From: Candidatus Micrarchaeia archaeon
GTDB taxonomy: Archaea > Micrarchaeota > Micrarchaeia > Burarchaeales > JAVZCV01
Assembly: GCA_038874215.1 (NCBI GenBank)
Contig: JAVZCV010000018.1
Span: 1-24,539 of the forward strand
Reading direction: 5' to 3'
Length of the DNA: 24,539 nucleotides
Position 1 is the first letter of the stretch. The number at the start of each line of letters is the position of its first letter. This document shows, piece by piece, positions 4,936 to 16,737 of this stretch. The translations under genes were made by a program, and so were the position numbers. The notes beneath the pieces are model-generated. The model did not search any database, was not told the DNA's origin, and saw only the letters and a program-made list of their open reading frames with translations.

Positions 4936-5933
4936 TATCTGCATCGGTGCGTCATGATATCGCATGTCGTACCTGGGCAGTCGGCGTTGCTTGAACACGT
5001 GCTGTACCTCCATGTGCATGTGTGGTTTATCGGGTTGCATATCTCCTCGTATTTGCATTCTGAATCGTATGAACACCTTCCTGGTTTGGATGCGCAGATG
5101 TGTCGTGAAGGCTCGCAGTATTGCCACTCATTGCATTCTGAATCGGTGTTGCATTTTCCGCTGTATGTTTTGCACCTGTGGTCGTTTGGGTCGCAGAACT
5201 GCCATGACTTGCAATTTGCATTTGTATCGCAACGGTCGTTCTTAGCTTCGCAAACGTTTTTTGTAGGGTTGCAGTATTGCCATTCTCCGCATTCAGTATC
5301 AGATGTGCAATAGAACTCAAAAAGCTCGCATTTGTGCTCTTTGCAAACATACTTCGTGCATTTGCACCACGAATTGCAATCGTAGTCGTTGTTGCAGAAG
5401 CCAGGCTTGGGAACGCACCGTTTTGAAGCGAGATTGCAAAGCTCCCAACGCTGGCACGAAGAGTTATCAAAACAGTAGCCATCTTTCGGAGCACAGTAGT
5501 TTGTGCTCATGTTGCAGAACTGCCAGAACTCGCAGTCAAAATCGTCTGAACAACGGCCAGGGCTTGGGGTGCAATAATGCTTACTGTCGCAGAACTGCCA
5601 TGGGCTGCATGAAGTGTCGTCTTTGCATCTGCCGATTTTCAGCTTGCATGTGTTCAGAGTGATGTCGCAAACCTCCCACTCATAACAGTCGGCATCCTTA
5701 CCGCAGAAACCACGCTGGTACTGGCACTTGTGCGTCTGCTTGTTGCAGAACATTTTTCCCTTGCAGTCTGTGTCATCGCTACAAAAACCCGGCGCTGCAA
5801 TGCACGTATTGGTGGAGACGTTGCAGGTTTGCCAGCTTTGGCAGTCTTTGTCAGAGTTGCATTTGGGCGGGCCGCCTCCGCACCCTATGAGAAGCAAAAA
5901 CGGAAGCAGGAAAACCAAAGTTTCACTTCGCAT
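4932..5933 (-). CDS. Cysteine-rich repeat lipoprotein (12 repeats of ~26 aa, four Cys each)
   Basis: Signal peptide with lipobox LLIG-C18, then 12 repeats of consensus CxxDxDCxxW(Q/E)xCxxxxxxCxxxxGx; 51 Cys in 333 aa; own TATA box TTATATAA at 5955-5962. Confidence 0.85.
   Translation of the reverse strand: MRSETLVFLLPFLLLIGCGGGPPKCNSDKDCQSWQTCNVSTNTCIAAPGFCSDDTDCKGKMFCNKQTHKCQYQRGFCGKDADCYEWEVCDITLNTCKLKIGRCKDDTSCSPWQFCDSKHYCTPSPGRCSDDFDCEFWQFCNMSTNYCAPKDGYCFDNSSCQRWELCNLASKRCVPKPGFCNNDYDCNSWCKCTKYVCKEHKCELFEFYCTSDTECGEWQYCNPTKNVCEAKNDRCDTNANCKSWQFCDPNDHRCKTYSGKCNTDSECNEWQYCEPSRHICASKPGRCSYDSECKYEEICNPINHTCTWRYSTCSSNADCPGTTCDIMTHRCRY
4935..5861 (-). repeat. Protein-level tandem repeat array (12 units of ~78 nt), diverged at DNA level
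   Basis: Units include CNSDKDCQSWQTCNVSTNTCIAAPGF, CSDDFDCEFWQFCNMSTNYCAPKDGY and CNTDSECNEWQYCEPSRHICASKPGR; unit 7 has two extra Cys. Confidence 0.85.
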
Positions 5934-5962
5934 GAGAAAATTATGCTGGTTGTTTTATATAA

Positions 5963-6265
5963 TTAATGCTGCACTGGTGCCGTTTTCAGCGCTTTTATGA
6001 AAACGGATAAAACCAGTATAAGCAAAATCCAGAGCGTCAGAAGGAAGAGATTTCTGTCTCTTCTTTTTAGGTAATATATAAGAAGCGAAACCACGCCTAA
6101 TAGAGGCGCAAAAACGAATGCGCCCACTCCTAAAAGCAGGAATGATGCCGATATAGTATTGCCTGCCAAGTAAAGAAGAATGCCAAGAGACAAAAATAAG
6201 ATGCTGATAGTACAAGCTGTTTTGTATATTGCGGTGAGCAGATTTGAGGTTTTATTTTCATCCAT
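5963..6265 (-). CDS. Small membrane protein, DUF1634-like
   Basis: Three hydrophobic helices; overlaps the stop of the upstream TauE/SafE gene, the usual partner of DUF1634; motif LLGVGAFVFAPLLGV..YYLKRRDR. Confidence 0.7.
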   Translation of the reverse strand: MDENKTSNLLTAIYKTACTISILFLSLGILLYLAGNTISASFLLLGVGAFVFAPLLGVVSLLIYYLKRRDRNLFLLTLWILLILVLSVFIKALKTAPVQH

Positions 6266-7070
6266 AGAAAATCCCTTTTAAGAGAAGCACAATGGAAATA
6301 AGGAATAGCACAAGAACTATAATGTTCTTCACCGTCTTCTCATCGGCGTTTTTGAAAAAAGCGCTTCCTAAATGCGCACCGAAAAAAACCCCAAAAAGTG
6401 CTGTTCCAAAAAGCGTCATTTCAGAATACCCAGAAGCGGTGTAAACGAGTGCGCCAGCACATGTATTTATGCCCATCATGAAAACACTCGTCGCCACAGT
6501 GCGCTTGATAGGGATGCACATAAGCCTGTTCATTGTAGGGACGAAGAATATGCCGCCACCTATGCCAAACAGCCCTGCGAAAACTCCTGCAAAAAAACAT
6601 ATAGGAAATGCCAACTGGCAATTGGGGATTTTTTCGCTTTCATTGCTACGGGCGGAAGTTGGCATTTGTATGTTTGGGTCTGCTCTTTTGTTTCCCGAGG
6701 GGGACTCAGATCTCATCAGAAGAAAAATGAAGAATAGAAGGATGCCCAAAGCGATGCTGATTATTCTCTCTGGCAGGGATATTGCGGCGGTTGCACCTAC
6801 GATTGCGCCCAAAACTGCTGGCGCCTCCAAAAAAAGAGCAAGACGCACATTAACGAAGCCGCTATGCAGGTATTTCCGTGATGAGATAACAGATGTTGCG
6901 ACTGCTGAAATCAGGCTTGTAGCAATTGCGTAGTGTAAGGGTACGTTTGCGCAGAGAAATAAAAGCGGGGCAAGCAATATTCCCGCACCTATGCCAGTGG
7001 ATGAGGAAACTGTTGAAGCAAACAGTGATATTAAAAATACGATGGCGTGCTGGATGGGTGTGAAATGCAT
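6258..7070 (-). CDS. Sulfite exporter TauE/SafE (TSUP) family membrane protein
   Basis: Two repeats of the TSUP motif (GIGAGILLAP...AIATSL; GLFGIGGGIFFVP...VATS); about 8 TM helices; RBS-like GAGGAAGGTGA upstream. Confidence 0.9.
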   Translation of the reverse strand: MHFTPIQHAIVFLISLFASTVSSSTGIGAGILLAPLLFLCANVPLHYAIATSLISAVATSVISSRKYLHSGFVNVRLALFLEAPAVLGAIVGATAAISLPERIISIALGILLFFIFLLMRSESPSGNKRADPNIQMPTSARSNESEKIPNCQLAFPICFFAGVFAGLFGIGGGIFFVPTMNRLMCIPIKRTVATSVFMMGINTCAGALVYTASGYSEMTLFGTALFGVFFGAHLGSAFFKNADEKTVKNIIVLVLFLISIVLLLKGIFYG

Positions 7071-7092
7071 GGTTCACCTTCCTCGCTTATCG

Positions 7093-7767
7093 CTAAGCTT
7101 GTGTTGAAGTCTCAAACGCATCGGCTATCTCTTTACCCTCTATATAGACAAGGTTTTTCCTGAGAGCATATTTTCTTGCTTCATCAGCATCAAGCGCGTT
7201 TCCATCTTCCCCCAGCATTTCGCATAAAACGGCGATGGGTCTCTCGCCAGCCATGCGGGCAATCGCAAGCGCAAGCTCGGTATGCCCTCGCCTTTTTTCT
7301 AAACCACCTTCATGCTCTATGAGGAGGGGAACGTGGCCAGGCGAGCGGAAGTTAAGCAAAAACTCATCTTTGCTTTTGACAGAAGACAGCGCTGTTATCG
7401 TAAGCGATCTATCGTTGTCGGTTATGCCCGTGAATGTTTTTATGTGATTTACGGTTATTGAGAATGCGGAGGTACTCCTATAAGGAAGAGGATGGAGGAG
7501 GGATGAGAGAAAACGATAAGTTGATGAGGCGTATATTTCATGCATAAAAACAAGACCGAGCGTTTTTGCTATTTCGTTCCCAAGCGCAACGCATATAAGG
7601 CCGCCAGCGTCCTTTCGCATCTGCTTAATTTTGTATGGTGTTGAGTGGCGCGCGCAGAGTACCATATCCACCTCGTTCTCGCGCTTTTCATCATCGTGAA
7701 TTAAAAGAATCTCGCCTCTACGGAAGGATTCTGCTGCTATTTTTATCATTTTATCACTCGCCTTCAT
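7093..7767 (-). CDS. ribB: 3,4-dihydroxy-2-butanone 4-phosphate synthase
   Basis: Motifs DDEKRENEVD, GGLICVAL, SAFSITVNH..TFTGITDNDR, FRSPGHV, RRGHTE, LCEM (archaeal RibB type). Start probably ATG 7767 (or 7749) rather than 7806. Confidence 0.95.
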   Translation of the reverse strand: MKASDKMIKIAAESFRRGEILLIHDDEKRENEVDMVLCARHSTPYKIKQMRKDAGGLICVALGNEIAKTLGLVFMHEIYASSTYRFLSSLLHPLPYRSTSAFSITVNHIKTFTGITDNDRSLTITALSSVKSKDEFLLNFRSPGHVPLLIEHEGGLEKRRGHTELALAIARMAGERPIAVLCEMLGEDGNALDADEARKYALRKNLVYIEGKEIADAFETSTQA

Positions 7768-7863: not shown

Positions 7864-8502
7864 ATGGAAGAGAGGGGGAAGATGCCTTTTAGGTATATAG
7901 CAGACATAATCAACAAAATTCTCGGAAGAAGAAAGACCCTGAGCCTCGGCGTTTACGGCTCGCCAAATACGGGAAAAACAACGCTTGCCAACAGGATATC
8001 AATGGACTGGCTTGGCGAACCGGTTGGGACTGTTTCGGAGATTCCCCATGAAACGAGATTTGTGCAGAAGAAGGAGAGGATAAACATTGAGGCGAACGGA
8101 AAGAAGCTTACGATAAATTTGCTTGATATGCCAGGGATAGCAACAAAAGTGGACTACAGAGATTTCTTGGAATATGGGCTGAAAGTCAAAACAGCGCAGG
8201 AGAGGGCAAAAGAAGCGACGAAAGGCATAATAGAGGCGATAAAGTGGCTTGAGCACGTTGATGCGGCCCTCGTGGTTATGGACAGCACAGATGACCCTTA
8301 TACGCAGGTTAACATAACTGTGCTCGGCAATCTTGAAGCAAGAAGGATACCCGTGATAATAGTTGCAAACAAAATAGATTTGCCGAATGCAAAGCCCGAT
8401 AGGATACGGGAGGCTTTCCCGCAGTATCCTGTCGTGGATGTATCGGCAAAGGAAGGGACAAACTTGGATGCGCTTTACCATATGCTCAGTGAGAAGTTGT
8501 AG
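7864..8502 (+). CDS. Era-like small GTP-binding protein (OapA-like)
   Basis: G1 GSPNTGKT, G2 HET, G3 DMPG, G4 NKID, G5 SAK; family motifs EATKGIIEAIKWL and DPYTQVNITVLGNLEAR. Alternative start ATG 7882. Confidence 0.9.
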   Translation: MEERGKMPFRYIADIINKILGRRKTLSLGVYGSPNTGKTTLANRISMDWLGEPVGTVSEIPHETRFVQKKERINIEANGKKLTINLLDMPGIATKVDYRDFLEYGLKVKTAQERAKEATKGIIEAIKWLEHVDAALVVMDSTDDPYTQVNITVLGNLEARRIPVIIVANKIDLPNAKPDRIREAFPQYPVVDVSAKEGTNLDALYHMLSEKL

Positions 8503-8510
8503 GTGTTGCC

Positions 8511-8873
8511 ATGGGAGTGCAGATAGAGTTTATATCGTCAAGCGTCCTTGAACCAAAAGGCGAGGAGAAAATAAATTACATAATTGAAAGCATAAAGGAG
8601 AACAGGATAGTAGTTCTTGAGAAACCGCTGACGATAAGTGAAGAGAAGAGGCTGATAGAGGAAACGATGAGGCAAATAAACACGGATTTCACGGGTATAG
8701 AGGTGTCAACACTGGGGAGAAACGAGGAGAGCGGGCTTAAAGGATTGCTCATAAGACTCCTTGGAGGGAAGGTTGGAGGGCTTACTGTTATAGGGCCGTC
8801 AAACCTTGTGAAAAAAGTAAAGAGGAATGCGGATAGTATAGAACTTTTCGCGATAAGCGGGAGAAGGCGTTGA
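8511..8873 (+). CDS. DUF2073 family protein (OapB-like)
   Basis: Motifs IVVLEKPL..EEKRLIEETM..I..DFTGIEV and GLTVIGPSNLVK; lies directly after the Era-like GTPase, as in the conserved archaeal cluster. Confidence 0.85.
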   Translation: MGVQIEFISSSVLEPKGEEKINYIIESIKENRIVVLEKPLTISEEKRLIEETMRQINTDFTGIEVSTLGRNEESGLKGLLIRLLGGKVGGLTVIGPSNLVKKVKRNADSIELFAISGRRR

Positions 8874-8874
8874 G

Positions 8875-9195
8875 ATGCCGCACCGATGCGTGAAATGCAA
8901 CAAGATATATGGGGAAAATTCTTCGGAACTTGCCAATGGCTGTTCCTGCGGTTCAAGGGTTTTTGTTTTTGTTAAGCCTGGTGGTGAGATTGCAGGAGAT
9001 GAAGATATATCGTGGATAGCGAGGGAGCTCGCAGGCACGCTTGAAAAGCCGAAGGGAGTAGTAGCGTTGGAGGTTGAAAACATACGGATGCTAAGCAAGG
9101 GAATTTTTGAAGTGGATATAAGCTCGCTTATGAGCAAAAACCCCGTTGTTGTTAAGGATGGTAATGGCGTATACTATATAAGGTTGTCTGGCTGA
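8875..9195 (+). CDS. Zn-ribbon protein, DUF2072 family (OapC-like)
   Basis: MPHRCVKC...GCSCGSRVF Zn ribbon; C-terminal ENIRMLSKGIFEVDISSL...GVYYIRL; third gene of the cluster. Confidence 0.85.
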   Translation: MPHRCVKCNKIYGENSSELANGCSCGSRVFVFVKPGGEIAGDEDISWIARELAGTLEKPKGVVALEVENIRMLSKGIFEVDISSLMSKNPVVVKDGNGVYYIRLSG

Positions 9196-10506
9196 TTACT
9201 CTCCTCCCCTTAATGCTCTTTCAACTATCTCTTCAGCTTTCCCGATATATGTTGCTGGATCGGTTAGCTCTTCAACCTCCTCTTTTGTGAATTTCTCAAG
9301 AAGAAGCTCGCTGAACTTCCTTTTTTCGTTTCTAGCACGGATTATCATTGTTCGCACATACTCGTGTGCGTCCTGCCTGCCCATCCCTTTTTTTGTTAGC
9401 GCGAGCATGACTCGCTCAGCAAATATCTCGTCTGTAAGCATAAGATTTCTTCTTATGTTCTCGGCGAAGAATTCCAAGCCTGAAAGGATGCTAGTCATCT
9501 GTACGAGCATATAGTCTGTGATTATGAATGCCTCAGGCAAGATGAAGCGCTCGTTTGCTGAGTTTGTCAGATCCCTCTCATGTTCAAGCGGAATGTTCTC
9601 AAGCGCAACATGTAAGTTAGTTCTAACTATGCGCGCGAGACTGCATATCCTCTCTGATTTGTGTGGGTTCCGTTTGTGAGGCATTGTTGAGCTACCAACC
9701 TGCTTTGCACCAAAAGGCTCGGCAACCTCTGCTATTTCAGTCCTCTGAAGGTTTCGTATTTCCTTCGCTATTTTTTCAAGCGTGCATGCAATAAGAGATA
9801 AAATAAAGATTGCTTCTGCATGTCTATCCCGCTGTATAACTTGGTTGGAAACAAGTGCGGGCTTTAAACCAAGTTGAGACATAACTTTATTCTCTATAAG
9901 AAAAGCCTTGTCGCCGAATGTCGCCATCGTGCCCACAGCACCGCTCATCTTTCCGACAAAAAGACGCGGTTTCGCCTCATGTATACGTTTCTGATGCCTA
10001 CGTATTTCTGATAGATAAAGTGCGAATTTCATACCATATGTTGTTGGTACTGCATGCTGCCCGTGTGTTCTCCCTATACAAACAGTCTTCTTATGCCTCT
10101 TCGCCAGTTTTATGAGCACCTTTTCCAGCTCTCTCAGTCGTTTTTCTATCAACCCGATGGCATCTTTCAGCGTTAGTGCGAGTGCGGTATCCTCTATATC
10201 ATAGCTTGTAGCACCAAGGTGGACATATGCGGCTGCCTTCGGCGAGCACTGCTCTGAGAGCGCTTTCACCATCGCCATTAGGTCGTGGTGTATCTGCTCC
10301 TCTATTTCCTTTACCCTTTCTGGCTTTACCTTTCCGCTCTCTGCTACTCTCACTATTTCTTCAGCCACATTTTTTGGGATATTCCCAACTTCCGCATGCG
10401 CTCTTGCAAGCGCAGCCTCAACGAGAAGCCATTTCTTAAGCCGTGCTTCCTCATCAAAAATTTGGGACATCTCGGTTTTGTATCGGTATTCAAGAGGGGA
10501 TATCAC
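9196..10506 (-). CDS. purB: Adenylosuccinate lyase
   Basis: SPLEYRY, HHDLMA, HLGATSYDI, GRTHGQHA, GSSTMPHKRNP, HERDLTNS. Start probably GTG 10506, preceded by RBS GGTGA. Confidence 0.97.
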   Translation of the reverse strand: MISPLEYRYKTEMSQIFDEEARLKKWLLVEAALARAHAEVGNIPKNVAEEIVRVAESGKVKPERVKEIEEQIHHDLMAMVKALSEQCSPKAAAYVHLGATSYDIEDTALALTLKDAIGLIEKRLRELEKVLIKLAKRHKKTVCIGRTHGQHAVPTTYGMKFALYLSEIRRHQKRIHEAKPRLFVGKMSGAVGTMATFGDKAFLIENKVMSQLGLKPALVSNQVIQRDRHAEAIFILSLIACTLEKIAKEIRNLQRTEIAEVAEPFGAKQVGSSTMPHKRNPHKSERICSLARIVRTNLHVALENIPLEHERDLTNSANERFILPEAFIITDYMLVQMTSILSGLEFFAENIRRNLMLTDEIFAERVMLALTKKGMGRQDAHEYVRTMIIRARNEKRKFSELLLEKFTKEEVEELTDPATYIGKAEEIVERALRGGE

Positions 10507-10585
10507 GAAAATCACCACAGTATTAGAAAGCAATGCGAATGATTAAATAATGTTGGTGGGGTAAGTCTTCTACACTATCTCGGAA

Positions 10586-10652: not shown

Positions 10653-13600
10653 ATGATGCCTACATTAAAAAGCCCTTTAGCAAAGATGCCAGGGGGGAAA
10701 ATACAAAATATAAGAAGCATTGTTGCTGAGAGAATAAAAAATGATAAAAGATTTGCCCCAGGCCGATGGCCATTAGAGCAGTTAAAAGGTATCAGCGAAG
10801 CGCTGTATCTGGGAGTGGAGACAAAACTAAGAATCGGCGGGTCTACATGGGACCCCATAGAGCCGAAAGATGCAGAAATGACTGTTGCGTTTTCTGGTGG
10901 TGAATCACTTAGTTGGTCGCCAAGGGTTTTGGGTGCAATAGACGTAGTGAAAAAAGGTGGGGAAGAGCCTCTGGTGCAGTACTATATTAAAATAAATGAT
11001 CCGTGGCAGTTTTTGGCAGGTCTGTTTGCAGGCAAACAAAGATGGGGTCCTGAACTGTTCCCGACAGGAATAGTAATACCTTCTGTGAAGTTGGGTGGTG
11101 AAGAAACTTCGGATATAATTGTGGCTGTTGAGGAGAGATTGGTGAAAGGCACGGGCCTACAGAATTTATTTAGAAGATATAGGGAAGGGGAAGCTGGCTT
11201 GGGCTCAATAAAGGGTGTGTATTCATCGCTTGCTTCCAAATTGAATCAGATGCTAACAAGAGTGCTAAATATTGGGGATTCGCCAACTCCATCTTATTTA
11301 GTATACACTTTTGAGGATAGGCCTGATGAGAGAATTCGTGTGTTGGAAGAAAGTGGGCATTTTGATATAAGAATGCTGAATTTTGGATATTCCGTCATAA
11401 TCCCAGCAGATATAGAGCCATATACTTATTCCCGCGAAGGTAGGTTGGAACTGAACAACGTCTACGGTGCATTAGTTAGTGCAATCAGAAATATTGAGGA
11501 GATGACGTTTACGCTTTTGCCTTCTCACACTGCCCAAAATGCGTGGGAGGGATTTAGAAATGGGCTTCTGAATCTGGCACGTGTTGACCCTCAGCGAGAG
11601 ATGTTCCATAGGTTAGTTTTTGATGCCGCTGAAAGGGAAAGTGGAGTAGGATTTCGAACGATGGGGAGAGTCAAGCAGAGGGTTCTAGAGGGCTTGGCGG
11701 AAACAGCGATAAGGAGGATAGAGGGCGAACTATCCCGTGCAGATTTACCGAATGAATCCGCGAGAGAGATGATAGATGCTATAGGGATAGATGTACGAAG
11801 ATTTCTAAAGAATGTGGAGGAGCAAGAAAGGATTGAATTAGACATTGTGGGTAGTCCCACGAGTTCTGTGATCACAGTAAGAGGACCGTTGCCCGAGGAA
11901 ATAAAATTGGTAGAATACGTTATTAGTAGTAAGGGGGTAGATGAAGAGACTAAAAGAGCAGTAGAAAAGGGTGAAAAATGCAATGTGGGGACTCATTTCG
12001 TATGTGCAGGCCATGTAGTTATGAGGAGCTACGGGGATAGATGGAAGCTAACCGAGAGCCTTAAGGGTAGTCCGTCAGAGATTGCAGAGATAGGCGAGAG
12101 CATAGGGCGAGCTCTTTCTTTGATGATAAATGCTGAGTTTTTACCAGCATCAACGGACATATATGAAAGAGGAACGTATATTATACCAGGTTTAGAGGGA
12201 TTTCTGCACTTCAAAATTGGAATAACAGATGTAGCTAATCTTAGCAAATCAAAAGATAGAGTAAGAGTTATAGCGGACCACCTAACTGCAATAGCGGGAA
12301 TACTCTCGCGTTTTGATAATGGGGTTATAGGCTGGGGAAATCTGAAGAGAGAACTACTTTCAAACGTGCGGGACGAATACCATAGCGACGTGAGAATGGC
12401 TATCAATGAAGTAAAGGGGGGAGAAGAACGGAGAGATTTCTTTGCTCGTGTGGGGAGTATAGAAAGGATGCCAGAGACGCTAAGAGAAAGGATAAAAAGT
12501 GAGCTGTCCACGCGTGGTTGCGCCGATGTAAGCAGGGCGTTTTATAATGTTCTCGCGATGTCTGTTACAGAAAAAGCTGAGGACCAAGAGAGATTTTTCA
12601 GAGACATATTTCCGAATTTAGTAGATGCAATAAAACGTGCAAGAGAGATGGGTGTAAACCCAGACCATGCTTTTGAAAGGCTTAGGATGCTAGGTGATAT
12701 ATTTGAGGAATGCAGAACGCACCCCCGTTCTGGGATAAGTGCAGGGATTTTCAGTATGAATAAACATGATTTTTATAGGGCGATAGGGAATAATCCAAAC
12801 GCAGTGCGGGTTCTCGTTGATGCGCAACCTAGACAAAAACCTGAACAAAGGCCGGTGATAGAGATAGCCGATGGCTTAAAATTCCAAGCCAAGTACATAG
12901 GGAGGTTGTTTCTCCTTAGTCTTGCTATGGCGCCGGAGTATTGCGAGCGCCTTTGTGATATCTACCCTGTAACAGCTAAACGTAGTATCGGCCTAAGAAG
13001 AATGTTGAAGGAGATTCATGAAGGATTGAATAAAGCGAGACTACAGGCAGAAAAGGAGTTTGAAAGAAGTGAAAAAACTGGGGATCCAGAAAAAGACAAA
13101 GAAAGACTGAGAGATATGGTGATGGAGAGGCAAACCGAATTTTTGAGGATATATTCGTATGTTGGGCTTGTTAGGTTGGGGCACATATATCTTAGGGATT
13201 TCGTTGGTGTGGCAAGAGCATCTTGGGAAGCACCCGATTTCCATGAACGAGTTTTTGAAAATTCACGGAAAAATATGAAGGTAATTCATGATGAGATGGG
13301 TGCGCTTAGCGATGCGCTCCTTTGGGGCGCATACTGGATAGCACGGAGGTATGCGGATGTGCGGTATGGTCGTAATTATGGCTTTGCTGTCGTTTGCGGT
13401 GGGGCAAACGCAAGAATAGACGATTTTCCATCGTTTGACTATGATGTAATTCCTCTAGGGCGTAACGCAAGTAATAGGGATTACTATGGGTGTCTAGCTG
13501 CAACCATGGAGAATATTGTAAGGATGATAGGACATGATTTTGATCCAAGCATATCCCTAACACGGAGAGATGTTAAATTGGTAGAGGAGCATATTAGAAT

Positions 13601-14549
13601 GTTAAAAGAAGCGGCAAGAGGAGAAGGTGAGAAAAGAGTATGGATTCGAGCATACACTTCGCTTAGGTATGCTGTAGGAGACCACAAAACTGCACAGGAG
13701 TTTATAAGTGGTGTTAACGAAACTTTGCTAACTCCAGCAGTAATTGAAGATATTATAGCGCTCAGACTTTACGGAAGATATTATAGAATGAAGGTAGATG
13801 AGTGGGGTGAGGAGGATTCCGAAAGAAACATAAAGATGAGGGAAGGCGGGCTTAGGGATGTTAATGAAGTCTTCTGGCTCTTTAGACTTTGGTTAAACCA
13901 ACAGACGTTCAAGCATGGTGGTGGGATTGCGATGGGTGTTGAGGAGGGCAGAGATACGCGAGAAGTTATAGAGATGATGGTTGAAAATCGCTTAATCACG
14001 AGGGAGGAGGCAAACCAGTTGCTTGAGTCTTATGATTTCTTGATGGATTTGAGAATAAGAATGGATCTTCATTTTGGCAGGAACAACAAAGAATTACCTG
14101 CAGGCGATGAACTGCGCGATTTTGCATTTTCTTTGGGCTACAACGATACTGAAAACAGTAGAGCAGAAGATAGATTTGATGAGAATTTAAGATATCACGC
14201 TGGCAGAGTAAGAAAAATAACAGAAAAAGCCGTATCTGCAATGTTTAGAGATAGAATTAAGCCGTATGTGGAGCAAGGGGCAGAGCTGCACGGCACTCGT
14301 ATTGGAGTGAATGACTTTGGGGGGGCTGTTTGGGATGCCATAGACCCGGCTATGAGAGAGATTATTCAGGGATACATAAGGACAATTAGGAACAGGAACC
14401 CGAATTTTATGGGTGATAATCGCGGTGATGAGGGGCAAGCGAGGATAAGAGAGGCAGAAATAAAAGGTAGGATTGGGGAAATGCGAAGACGGGAAGCAGA
14501 GGAAGCAAGAAAGAGAGGGGAATGGATATACCCGCACAACGGCGACTGA
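10653..14549 (+). CDS. Large multidomain protein: two putative degenerate protein-kinase-like domains plus a GlnE/GlnD-like nucleotidyltransferase
   Basis: Uninterrupted 1298-aa ORF. C-terminal half has Pol-beta NTase motif FAVVCGGANARIDDFPSFDYD (D929/D931), RYAVGD, NIKMREGGLRD and LITREEANQLLESYDFLMDLRIRMDL, typical of GlnD/GlnE. N-terminal half has two Bud32/RIO-like segments (YYIK..EDRPDER..MLNFGYS; IGRALSLM..STD..GITDVA). The CDS is very likely real; the NTase call is moderate and the kinase-like call tentative. Confidence 0.7.
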   Translation: MMPTLKSPLAKMPGGKIQNIRSIVAERIKNDKRFAPGRWPLEQLKGISEALYLGVETKLRIGGSTWDPIEPKDAEMTVAFSGGESLSWSPRVLGAIDVVKKGGEEPLVQYYIKINDPWQFLAGLFAGKQRWGPELFPTGIVIPSVKLGGEETSDIIVAVEERLVKGTGLQNLFRRYREGEAGLGSIKGVYSSLASKLNQMLTRVLNIGDSPTPSYLVYTFEDRPDERIRVLEESGHFDIRMLNFGYSVIIPADIEPYTYSREGRLELNNVYGALVSAIRNIEEMTFTLLPSHTAQNAWEGFRNGLLNLARVDPQREMFHRLVFDAAERESGVGFRTMGRVKQRVLEGLAETAIRRIEGELSRADLPNESAREMIDAIGIDVRRFLKNVEEQERIELDIVGSPTSSVITVRGPLPEEIKLVEYVISSKGVDEETKRAVEKGEKCNVGTHFVCAGHVVMRSYGDRWKLTESLKGSPSEIAEIGESIGRALSLMINAEFLPASTDIYERGTYIIPGLEGFLHFKIGITDVANLSKSKDRVRVIADHLTAIAGILSRFDNGVIGWGNLKRELLSNVRDEYHSDVRMAINEVKGGEERRDFFARVGSIERMPETLRERIKSELSTRGCADVSRAFYNVLAMSVTEKAEDQERFFRDIFPNLVDAIKRAREMGVNPDHAFERLRMLGDIFEECRTHPRSGISAGIFSMNKHDFYRAIGNNPNAVRVLVDAQPRQKPEQRPVIEIADGLKFQAKYIGRLFLLSLAMAPEYCERLCDIYPVTAKRSIGLRRMLKEIHEGLNKARLQAEKEFERSEKTGDPEKDKERLRDMVMERQTEFLRIYSYVGLVRLGHIYLRDFVGVARASWEAPDFHERVFENSRKNMKVIHDEMGALSDALLWGAYWIARRYADVRYGRNYGFAVVCGGANARIDDFPSFDYDVIPLGRNASNRDYYGCLAATMENIVRMIGHDFDPSISLTRRDVKLVEEHIRMLKEAARGEGEKRVWIRAYTSLRYAVGDHKTAQEFISGVNETLLTPAVIEDIIALRLYGRYYRMKVDEWGEEDSERNIKMREGGLRDVNEVFWLFRLWLNQQTFKHGGGIAMGVEEGRDTREVIEMMVENRLITREEANQLLESYDFLMDLRIRMDLHFGRNNKELPAGDELRDFAFSLGYNDTENSRAEDRFDENLRYHAGRVRKITEKAVSAMFRDRIKPYVEQGAELHGTRIGVNDFGGAVWDAIDPAMREIIQGYIRTIRNRNPNFMGDNRGDEGQARIREAEIKGRIGEMRRREAEEARKRGEWIYPHNGD

Positions 14550-14554
14550 AACCG

Positions 14555-15829
14555 CTACACAGGGTATCTGAACTTCTTTCCCGCATATCTAGCACGCTTT
14601 CCAAGCATTTCTTCTATGCGGAGCAGTTGATTGTACTTCGCAACCCGTTCCCCACGCGCTGGGGCGCCAGTCTTTATCTGGCCCCCATTTATTGCAACCA
14701 CTAAATCGGCAATCGTTGAATCGTCCGTTTCTCCAGAGCGGTGGCTCACAACAACTCCGTAGCGGTGCTTTCTAACGAGCTCCGCTGCCTCAATAGCCTC
14801 TGTGAGCGTGCCTATCTGATTTACTTTTAGGAGAAGTGCGTTCATAGCACGCTTTTCTATGGCTTGCTGTATCCGCCCTACATTAGTTACTACGAGGTCG
14901 TCTCCGACTATCTGGACTTTTTTGCCTATGCTCGCATTCAGTTCTGCAAAAGATTCAAAATCCTCCTCAAAAAACGGGTCTTCTATGCTCACGATCGGGA
15001 AGTTCTCAACTAGCTCCTCGTAGAATTCAAGCAACTTGTTGCTACTCACGCTTTTGCCGTCCAATCTGTATTGGTGCGTTTTCTCATCGTAGAAAGAACT
15101 TGCGGCGGCATCTATCGCAAGCGAAACCTGCTTCGTGTAGCCAGCTGAATCAACCGCATCCTGTATTGCGCGCAATGCGTCTTCTGCCTTTTCAATTGGC
15201 GGTGCAAAGCCACCCTCGTCGCCAACATTTCTCGCAAATGCGCCGTATTTTTTCGTTAAGATTGAGCCGAGATGATGGTATGTCTCGGAGCCCATGCGCA
15301 GGGCTTCTGAGAAGGAGCGCGCGCCTACGGGCATAATCATGAACTCCTGAATGCTCAACTTGGTGCCCGCATGCTTGCCGCCATTTAGTATGTTGAACTG
15401 CGGGACTGGAAGAACGCATGCTTTAACGCCTCCCAAATAGCGGAAAAGCGGGAGGTTCAGCGCGTTTGCTGCCGCCTTCGCAGCAGCCATTGATGTTGCG
15501 GTTGTTGCGTTAGCGCCGAGCTTCGCCTTGTTCGGCCCTCCAAGCTCTATGAGCTTTTCATCAATTTTCTTCTGGTTTCTGACATCGTAGCCACGAAGTT
15601 CCCGTGCGATTATTGTATTCACGTTTCTAACAGCTTTAATAACGCCCTTTCCGAGATAGCGCTTGCCGCCATCGCGGAGTTCAAGCGCCTCATGCACGCC
15701 AGTTGATGCGCCAGATGGAGCTGCAGCACGCCCCATTGCTGTGCGCGTTTTAACATCAACCTCAACGGTAGGGTTCCCACGCGAGTCCAGAATTTCCCTT
15801 GCAAAAACGCTAGCGATTTCAAAACTCAT
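14555..15829 (-). CDS. eno: Enolase
   Basis: ILDSRGNPTVE, SGASTGVHEALELRDG, GDEGGFAP, IEDPF, VGDDL, LLKVNQIGT, SHRSGET, QIKTGA..ERVAKYNQLLRIEE; RBS AGGTGG and TTTTTAAA TATA upstream. Confidence 0.98.
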   Translation of the reverse strand: MSFEIASVFAREILDSRGNPTVEVDVKTRTAMGRAAAPSGASTGVHEALELRDGGKRYLGKGVIKAVRNVNTIIARELRGYDVRNQKKIDEKLIELGGPNKAKLGANATTATSMAAAKAAANALNLPLFRYLGGVKACVLPVPQFNILNGGKHAGTKLSIQEFMIMPVGARSFSEALRMGSETYHHLGSILTKKYGAFARNVGDEGGFAPPIEKAEDALRAIQDAVDSAGYTKQVSLAIDAAASSFYDEKTHQYRLDGKSVSSNKLLEFYEELVENFPIVSIEDPFFEEDFESFAELNASIGKKVQIVGDDLVVTNVGRIQQAIEKRAMNALLLKVNQIGTLTEAIEAAELVRKHRYGVVVSHRSGETDDSTIADLVVAINGGQIKTGAPARGERVAKYNQLLRIEEMLGKRARYAGKKFRYPV

Positions 15830-16221: not shown

Positions 16222-16737
16222 CTATTTTTCACCAAGCAATTTAAAAACGAGTTCTACTGCTTCTTTTGCGCTTTTCGCACGCATAATTTTATCCTGCCTT
16301 TTTGAATCAACCGCCTTTCCTGCGTATTCGTCTGCGTACCCGCCAGTTCCGCCTATGGCAACGGTAGGCTTTCCATATATCCAAGCGAAACAGATTTCTG
16401 AAAGCGTGCCGGCCTCCCCTCCTACAACTATAACTGCATCGCTTGATAGAACAACGAGCTGGTTTCTCGCATATCCCATTGAAGTTGGAATTCGTATATC
16501 AACATATTCGTTAGCCTCCTCTTTTGACGCCGACGGCAGTATTCCAACGGTAAGACCGTTTTCGCTCTTCGCTCCAGCGCATGCACGCTCCATTATCCCG
16601 CTGCGCCCACCGCAAACCAAAACCGCCCCTCTTTTCGCTATCTCTCTTCTAACTTCAAACGCAACATCAAGTGCCTTCGTTGTGGCGCACTCTGACCCTA
16701 TAACCCCTATTTGAATTCGCCCTTTATGGTGAGGCAT
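16222..16737 (-). CDS. LOG/SLOG family Rossmann-fold nucleotide-binding protein (TIGR00725-like)
   Basis: IGVIGS, LVCGGRSGIME..CAGAK, TVGILP, ARNQLVVLSSDAVIVVGGEAGTLSEI. Confidence 0.88.
   Translation of the reverse strand: MPHHKGRIQIGVIGSECATTKALDVAFEVRREIAKRGAVLVCGGRSGIMERACAGAKSENGLTVGILPSASKEEANEYVDIRIPTSMGYARNQLVVLSSDAVIVVGGEAGTLSEICFAWIYGKPTVAIGGTGGYADEYAGKAVDSKRQDKIMRAKSAKEAVELVFKLLGEK

Follow-up and report, generated by a model that had tools for sequence, protein, structure and literature searches.

An orphan N-terminal extension with possible kinase-like segments on a GlnE/GlnD-type nucleotidyltransferase module from a Micrarchaeota genome

The 24,539-nucleotide stretch of contig JAVZCV010000018.1 (assembly GCA_038874215.1, Candidatus Micrarchaeia archaeon), referred to here at its full length as the window, contains a monocistronic open reading frame (ORF) of 1298 amino acids (aa), P0001, at positions 10653..14549 of the + strand, which holds everything that forms the main subject of this work. 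The C-terminal half of the protein contains a nucleotidyltransferase (NTase) module of the GlnE/GlnD type (aa 638-1207; 12564..14273, +) whose catalytic GG...DxD motif is intact, as judged from its sequence. The residues in front of it (aa 1-637; 10653..12563, +) form an orphan extension that was found only in this genome. A degenerate kinase-like fold within this extension is plausible but unproven. The account that we prefer for the whole protein, i.e., a GlnE/GlnD-type NTase with an orphan N-terminus that holds one or more degenerate and catalytically dead kinase-like domains, has in our judgement somewhat less than an even chance of being correct.

A GlnE/GlnD-type nucleotidyltransferase module behind an orphan extension

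In the module, a helical part is followed by the NTase core and then by the PF08335 helical domain (GlnD_UR_UTase, aa 1055-1192; 13815..14228, +), which was detected in Pfam with an E value of 3.5e-20 (72.9 bits against a cut-off of 21) and is the sole Pfam domain found in the 1298-aa protein. The NTase motif GGANARIDDFPSFDYD (G916-G917 ... D929-x-D931; 13398..13445, +) corresponds to the G[GS]...DxD signature (G[GS]x9-13DxD) of pol-beta-type nucleotidyltransferases. It is kept in an alignment of three sequences (A1: P0001, P0003 and P0004), in which G917, N919, A920, R921 and F925-D931 are invariant. The succession of GG916-917, D929-Y-D931 and PF08335 is that of a GlnE/GlnD-type NTase. The full-length architecture of GlnE or GlnD is absent: the NCBIfam equivalogs of both were matched only partially, with 11-40 bits against cut-offs of 487-1299 (the best match having 40.1 bits against 519.4). 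Enzymes of the GlnE/GlnD type modify a tyrosine of their target protein with AMP or UMP, which they take from a nucleotide triphosphate.

Searches with aa 620-1298 as query retrieved P0003 (910 aa, from a JGI metagenome), which is 31% identical to aa 638-1207 (BLASTP E 1e-71), and a second relative, P0004 (777 aa). The A1 profile search added P0005 (837 aa, listed at NCBI as a partial protein from an Omnitrophota metagenome-assembled genome) and, at E 9e-20, reached a true GlnE (P0006) with a PF03710 domain. A further relative of 644 aa, consisting of the module only, is encoded at 5429-7363 (+) of a bacterial metagenome contig (locus L128). P0003, P0004, P0005 and the L128 protein (644-910 aa) are 24-31% identical to P0001 across the full aa 638-1207 and keep the FPSFDYD motif, and all of them lack the N-terminus of the window protein. 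The alignments to P0003, P0004 and P0005 stop at aa 1197-1209; the remaining C-terminal tail (aa 1208-1298; 14274..14546, +) is a charged, Arg/Glu-rich end that is unconserved in the homologues. The module adds a new member to a kind already known and belongs to a rare subfamily with four other members seen. As for the L128 relative, its gene lies between prmC and rpsB, after prfA, and these housekeeping surroundings give no clue to its target.

No homologue of the extension was found in any search. Exhaustive phmmer comparison of aa 1-620/640 with 1.84 billion representatives gave a single match at E<=0.001, the protein itself, and a word-indexed search with the same region likewise returned only the protein itself among 7997 scored candidates. 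When the region was compared with 401 genomes of the phylum, seven of the 400 other genomes gave scores of 10-14.5 bits, i.e., noise. The whole protein was matched by one of the 41 relatives of the genome, which was the genome itself; the other 40 lacked any part of it. Searches with the N-terminus gave nothing in phage records (tblastn) and nothing useful in PHROGs, PADLOC or the PDB sequences (phmmer). Furthermore, when the host genome was searched with the Pfam families PF06293 and PF19709, the 1298-aa gene was not matched.

Kinase-like features of the extension

An earlier note, made from the sequence alone, had described positions 10875-12359 (aa 75-569) as an internal duplication of a degenerate Bud32/RIO-like kinase fold with altered catalytic motifs. 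Bud32 (PRPK) is a small atypical kinase of the KEOPS complex (NCBIfam TIGR03724). The two proposed repeats are designated here as segment 1 (aa 75-306; 10875..11570, +), a candidate degenerate kinase-like domain with K113, D222 and N243 of an NFG motif, and segment 2 (aa 395-570); the bounds used in the profile and language-model tests were aa 60-320 or 60-330 for segment 1 and aa 380-600 for segment 2. All twelve strings and six numbered residues on which this reading was based could be located in the ORF. In segment 1 these are YYIK (aa 110-113, with K113), IVIPSV (140-145), IIVAVEERLVKGTGLQNLF (155-173), VYSSLASKLNQM (189-200), FEDRPDER (220-227, with D222 and R227), IRMLNFGYS (239-247, with N243) and AWEGFRNGLL (297-306). 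In segment 2 these are HVVMRSYGDRWKLTESL (454-470), EIGESIGRALSLM (479-491), STD (500-502, with D502), KIGITDVAN (521-529, with D526) and GWGNLKRELL (560-569). That both segments show the same elements in the same order could not be separated statistically from chance: the relaxed motif chain K-(80-130)-D-(15-30)-[DN][FVLIM][GA] occurred in 262 of 2000 shuffles of segment 1 and in 177 of 2000 shuffles of segment 2 (9-13%).

Segment 2, widened to aa 393-600 (11829..12452, +) according to a low-confidence collinear alignment, appears to be the better candidate for a degenerate Bud32-like domain. Profiles of Bud32 and RIO were built, each with 29 ORFs found in genomes of the phylum and with two loci of an unpublished genome (G061) left out. 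Compared by hhalign with the Bud32 profile, segment 2 was matched with P 0.0047 and a score of 24.7 (hhalign probability 7.4%), aa 471-512 being placed on the columns of alphaE, the catalytic loop and the region ahead of the DFG motif. This stretch, KGSPSEIAEIGESIGRALSLMINAEFLPASTDIYERGTYIIP (12063..12188, +), is the only one in the extension for which the match to a kinase profile attains borderline significance. The match was reproduced with a second Bud32 alignment made with a different tool (A2, 20 sequences; P 0.0052), the scores being 24-24.7. Neither 200 shuffles (maximum 23.9) nor 230 pieces of real proteins (random 221-aa pieces of non-kinase ORFs from the same genome; maximum 23.4) reached the observed score, the mean of these 430 null scores being 14.1-14.4 and their standard deviation 2.7-3.0. 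As a positive control, a single RIO sequence matched the Bud32 profile with an hhalign probability of 98.9. At low stringency, the alignment is collinear across the whole ~200-aa Bud32 domain, with a confidence of ~0 outside the 38-column core.

The position of the match bears on how the motifs are assigned. It falls, with both Bud32 alignments (P 0.0047-0.0052), exactly where the earlier note had likened EIGESIGRALSLM to the iGr.va.lH motif of Bud32. The proposal that D502 and D526 (in 'DVA') take the places of the catalytic and DFG aspartates is at variance with the same alignment, in which a 5-residue gap stands at IiHGD of Bud32, S500 occupies the position of the catalytic-loop Asn and IIPGLEGF (aa 510-517) lies on IDFGL. 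The alignments that carry any confidence lie outside the N-lobe of both segments, where the beta-3 Lys paired with a helix-C Glu and the Gly-rich loop would be expected; in the low-stringency alignment, a Thr is found at the position of the Bud32 Lys (confidence ~0). The chance that segment 2 is kinase-like comes close to even, although slightly on the unfavourable side.

For segment 1, the main lead comes from language-model neighbours. Among the 30 nearest named clusters for aa 60-320, 16 belonged to DUF6206, three to Kdo, three to WaaY, two to WaaY+ABC1 and one to APH, and five had no common family (scores 0.91-0.93; 134-143 of 256 features shared). When aa 60-620 were used as query, 29 of the top 30 clusters were without a common Pfam family, among them the one at rank 3 (score 0.93), named 'Protein kinase domain-containing protein', and the remaining one was DUF6206. 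These neighbours are a lead rather than a test, because, as stated for the tool, 4-10% of shuffled proteins reach 0.9. The true Bud32 of this genome cross-matches APH, RIO1, Pkinase, Kdo, ABC1 and WaaY in Pfam, and these families therefore form one superfamily. The DUF6206 profile was collinear with Bud32, only at P 0.052; literature on DUF6206 or DUF5752 was looked for and none was found.

A common register links segment 1, the N-terminus of P0003 and Bud32. When segment 1 was compared with Bud32 by hhalign, the best match was non-significant (P 0.52) and placed DIRMLNFGYSVIIP on vyvIDFGL, with N243 at the DFG Asp; R227 stands at the loop Asn solely under the alignment of the earlier note. 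P0003 possesses an N-terminus of its own (313 aa), which contains a DUF5752 match (E 8e-6, aa 146-204) and whose aa 77-117 align with LH..HGD..IDFGL..EDKA.DL of Bud32 (P 0.11-0.18). The first BLASTP match outside the shared module connects P0001 239-303 with P0003 94-158 (E 4.3). Hence three weak alignments, no piece of which is significant alone and which are not fully independent, agree in equating N243 of segment 1 with N98 of P0003 and with the DFG Asp of Bud32. A two-sequence profile of segment 1 and the P0003 N-terminus (A4) gave an improved match to Bud32 (P 0.035). This hints at a kinase-like domain as the possible ancestor of the N-terminal extensions in this NTase family. The DUF5752 match of P0003 was also considered as a bridge to the linker of the window protein; this was dropped, as none of 151 genomes of the phylum contained DUF5752.

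We rate a kinase-like nature of segment 1 as possible, a shade below segment 2, and we lean moderately towards at least one of the two segments being kinase-like. The assignment to a degenerate Bud32/RIO-like kinase thus stood in part: the borderline Bud32 match of segment 2 and the language-model neighbours of segment 1 speak for it, and RIO profiles matched neither segment. That the protein is no canonical kinase holds under every alignment. In the alignments, the catalytic HxD...N together with a DFG Asp is present in neither segment, and any kinase fold in the extension is, by its residues, predicted to be that of a pseudokinase.

Several observations weigh against kinase-like domains in the extension. 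Pfam searches with four N-terminal pieces at E<=10 recovered no kinase family, the sole rows being PSII_Pbs27 (0.028) and Hydro_N_hd (0.25). The P value of 0.005 for segment 2 is borderline (~0.05 when corrected), because about ten profile comparisons were made. Segment 2 was matched neither by the RIO profile (P 0.24) nor by those of Kdo/WaaP (A3, 24 sequences; P 0.35) and DUF6206 (A5, nine sequences; P 0.79), and for segment 1 all hhalign comparisons were non-significant (Bud32 0.37-0.52, RIO 0.93, Kdo 0.57, DUF6206 0.42). In hmmsearch --max with the Bud32 HMM, the score of segment 2 was reached by 199 of 500 shuffles and that of segment 1 by 82 of 500; with our own Bud32, RIO and combined HMMs (filters off), no segment exceeded its shuffles. 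The language-model scores (0.91-0.94 overall, with 134-152 of 256 features shared) are of the level that the shuffled proteins mentioned above attain. AlphaFold2, run without an alignment, produced unusable models with a mean pLDDT of 34.7 (aa 1-640) and 35.0 (aa 60-330), and in the former aa 445-465 are helical where the Bud32 alignment needs strands.

The two poor models decide nothing in either direction. In Foldseek searches against the PDB, they gave TM values of 0.05-0.16 and no match at E<=0.001. ROR1, EphB4 and APH(3')-Ia occurred at ranks 10, 36 and 38 of the second list (from the pLDDT-35 model), with E values of 0.6-1.4 and TM values of 0.10-0.16, and these rows carry no evidential meaning. 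The order of the secondary-structure elements is compatible with a kinase for segment 1, again without weight.

Alternative explanations

The most serious alternative is that aa 1-637 adopt some other or novel, lineage-specific alpha/beta and helical fold and that all resemblances to kinases arose by chance; we consider this about as tenable as a kinase-like segment 1, that is, distinctly possible and short of an even chance. It is in agreement with the frequency of the motif set in shuffled sequences, with the absence of Pfam, PDB and PHROGs matches, with HMMER --max scores no better than those of shuffles and P>0.2 in eight of about ten profile comparisons, with language-model scores that shuffled proteins also attain, and with Foldseek results (on poor models) in which no kinase rose above noise. 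However, it leaves unexplained that 0 of 430 nulls reached the score of segment 2 with Bud32, a match which lies on the catalytic core and has a collinear extension, that segment 1 has its language-model neighbours in just the superfamily which the earlier note had named independently, and that three weak alignments share one register. The full model of that note, according to which two pseudokinases arose from a Bud32/RIO-like domain duplicated within the gene, is quite unlikely in our view, and so is a true internal duplication as such. Some kinase-like signal is indeed present in both segments, and their sizes (~230 and ~210 aa) fit small atypical kinases. Moreover, proteins with tandem Kdo-type kinase domains in one frame of ~560 aa exist in genomes of Desulfobacterota, and a two-kinase-domain architecture therefore has precedent. 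Nevertheless, no similarity between the segments could be detected when they were aligned with each other: the best BLASTP E value for aa 75-306 against aa 395-570 was 3.4, the Smith-Waterman score of 34 (shuffle mean 32.0, standard deviation 5.3) was reached by 301 of 1000 shuffles, the semi-global score was reached by 286 of 500 shuffles, and hhalign gave P 0.27. Segment 2 also failed to match the two-sequence profile of segment 1 and the P0003 N-terminus (P 0.34), and the RIO profiles matched neither segment. The two segments are, at the sequence level, not demonstrably copies of each other.

Two further explanations are very improbable. GlnE carries two NTase modules, and the total length of 1298 aa would permit the N-terminus to be a decayed second NTase half. 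This was rejected, since aa 1-637 matched the A1 profile only with P 0.29 over 21 aligned columns; moreover, the N-terminus has no match to PF03710 or PF08335. Alternatively, the long ORF could be artefactual (from assembly or fusion) or untranslated in its front half. Indeed, the protein is the single member of its cluster and comes from one contig of a metagenome-assembled genome, and internal Met codons are present. Against this, all 1298 codons lie in an open frame, the two halves are alike in GC skew and composition and agree in both with the + strand neighbours, and the flanks consist of ordinary archaeal genes on the same contig. The GC skew is +0.25 to +0.39 over positions 11001-14000, resembling that of other + strand genes, and with such strongly positive values the whole 1298-codon ORF looks coding.

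In the genomes of Desulfobacterota, many open frames of ~550-610 aa hold two separate matches to Kdo/WaaP-type kinase domains (e.g., G548:C44:8407-9777, G442:C36:16572-17882, G461:C31:239121-240485), so that tandem proteins of this sort are seemingly common there.

Genomic setting, possible role and comparison with known systems

The 1298-aa ORF is flanked by purB (adenylosuccinate lyase; 9196-10533, -) as the divergent upstream neighbour and by the enolase gene (14555-15829, -) as the convergent downstream neighbour. Further genes around it encode OapB/OapC, NAC and ribosomal protein S3Ae; as the neighbours are of archaeal type, the host is an archaeon. Its assembly has a size of 1.13 Mb and a completeness of 91%. 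The genes for the origin-associated proteins OapB and OapC (window 8511-9195, +) adjoin a GTPase gene (7864-8502), and the cumulative GC skew peaks near 15 kb, so that a replication origin may be located in or near the window. A gene of the SLOG cluster-4 (LDcluster4) family is situated at 16222-16737 (-) of the window, between those of NAC and ribosomal protein S3Ae.

An ordinary Bud32 is encoded elsewhere in the host genome (contig C12, 181.5 bits). In addition, the ORF g243 (contig C10, at least 300 aa) matches the combined Bud32+RIO HMM with E<=1e-3 and represents a third kinase-like gene of this genome, besides those of Bud32 (C12) and RIO (C20). The genome also contains two genes for glutamine synthetase next to each other (460 and 445 aa; contig C4:35251-37683, locus L127 440-3202, -), one of which has a short masked stretch reading X. 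The 445-aa glutamine synthetase possesses a Tyr in the sequence '...EEDVYDFDDEK...', near the position that corresponds to the adenylylation site of the enterobacterial enzyme. No gene for P-II was detected in the host genome at its 91% completeness (0 matches).

In our preferred account, aa 1-637 would hold at least one strongly degenerate, catalytically dead kinase-like domain, for which aa ~393-600 are the better candidate, and aa 75-306 would possibly be a second one. Such domains would not phosphorylate anything; rather, and purely by inference from what the non-catalytic parts of GlnE and GlnD do, they would form a regulatory region for nucleotide sensing or target docking by which the nucleotidyltransferase is gated. 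A more specific version, with two tandem dead pseudokinases of the Bud32/Kdo type, too diverged to be recognised by sequence, serving as nucleotide or partner sensors that control a horizontally acquired GlnE-like AMP/UMP-transferase, which in turn modifies glutamine synthetase or another central enzyme in a genome that has no P-II, is in our opinion unlikely. If true, this architecture would tie the KEOPS-type kinase fold to protein nucleotidylylation, a connection for which a limited literature search revealed no description. Should the front half indeed contain dead kinase-like domains, the protein would offer a compact natural case in which pseudokinase modules gate a protein nucleotidyltransferase of the GlnE type, and a hint as to how nitrogen or central metabolism is regulated in a reduced archaeon that has glutamine synthetase and in which no P-II was found. 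A search of the literature on glutamine synthetase adenylyltransferase in Micrarchaeota gave nothing relevant. The generality of the finding is low, because the protein is a singleton from one metagenome-assembled genome. As it stands, the protein is a cautionary case, in which motif reading, profiles and single-sequence structure prediction leave the fold of 637 orphan residues unsettled.

When compared with known systems, the module resembles GlnE and GlnD in the presence of PF08335, in the GG...DxD motif and in the helical region ahead of the NTase core; two glutamine synthetase genes, whose products are candidate targets, lie in the host genome. It differs from GlnE in having one NTase module instead of two and from GlnD in lacking HD and ACT domains, and the 637-aa N-terminus is unrelated to either enzyme. 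With P0003, P0004, P0005 and the L128 protein the window protein shares the module, whereas the N-terminus distinguishes it from all of them. Segment 2 resembles Bud32 in its size (~208 aa versus ~200), in the alignment of aa 471-512 (P 0.005) and in a low-confidence collinearity which reaches the C-terminal RGRY region. Unlike Bud32, it has the HGD deleted in this alignment, Ser in place of the loop Asn and Ile/Pro in place of the DFG Asp. Furthermore, it scores far under any family threshold and is fused inside a 1298-aa protein rather than being free-standing beside Kae1. A review (PMC12409994) distinguishes three types of AMPylases, i.e., those with adenylyltransferase, FIC and kinase domains. 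With SelO AMPylase and other rewired kinase folds, the window protein would share the concept of a kinase-like fold without canonical residues in a protein of nucleotidyl transfer; nucleotidyl transfer is here already explained by the GlnE-like module, and no link to SelO, SidJ or NiRAN in sequence or structure was found, none having been tested for. Among these systems, the fusion of a GlnE-like module to an orphan N-terminus of possibly pseudokinase nature would constitute a new variant.

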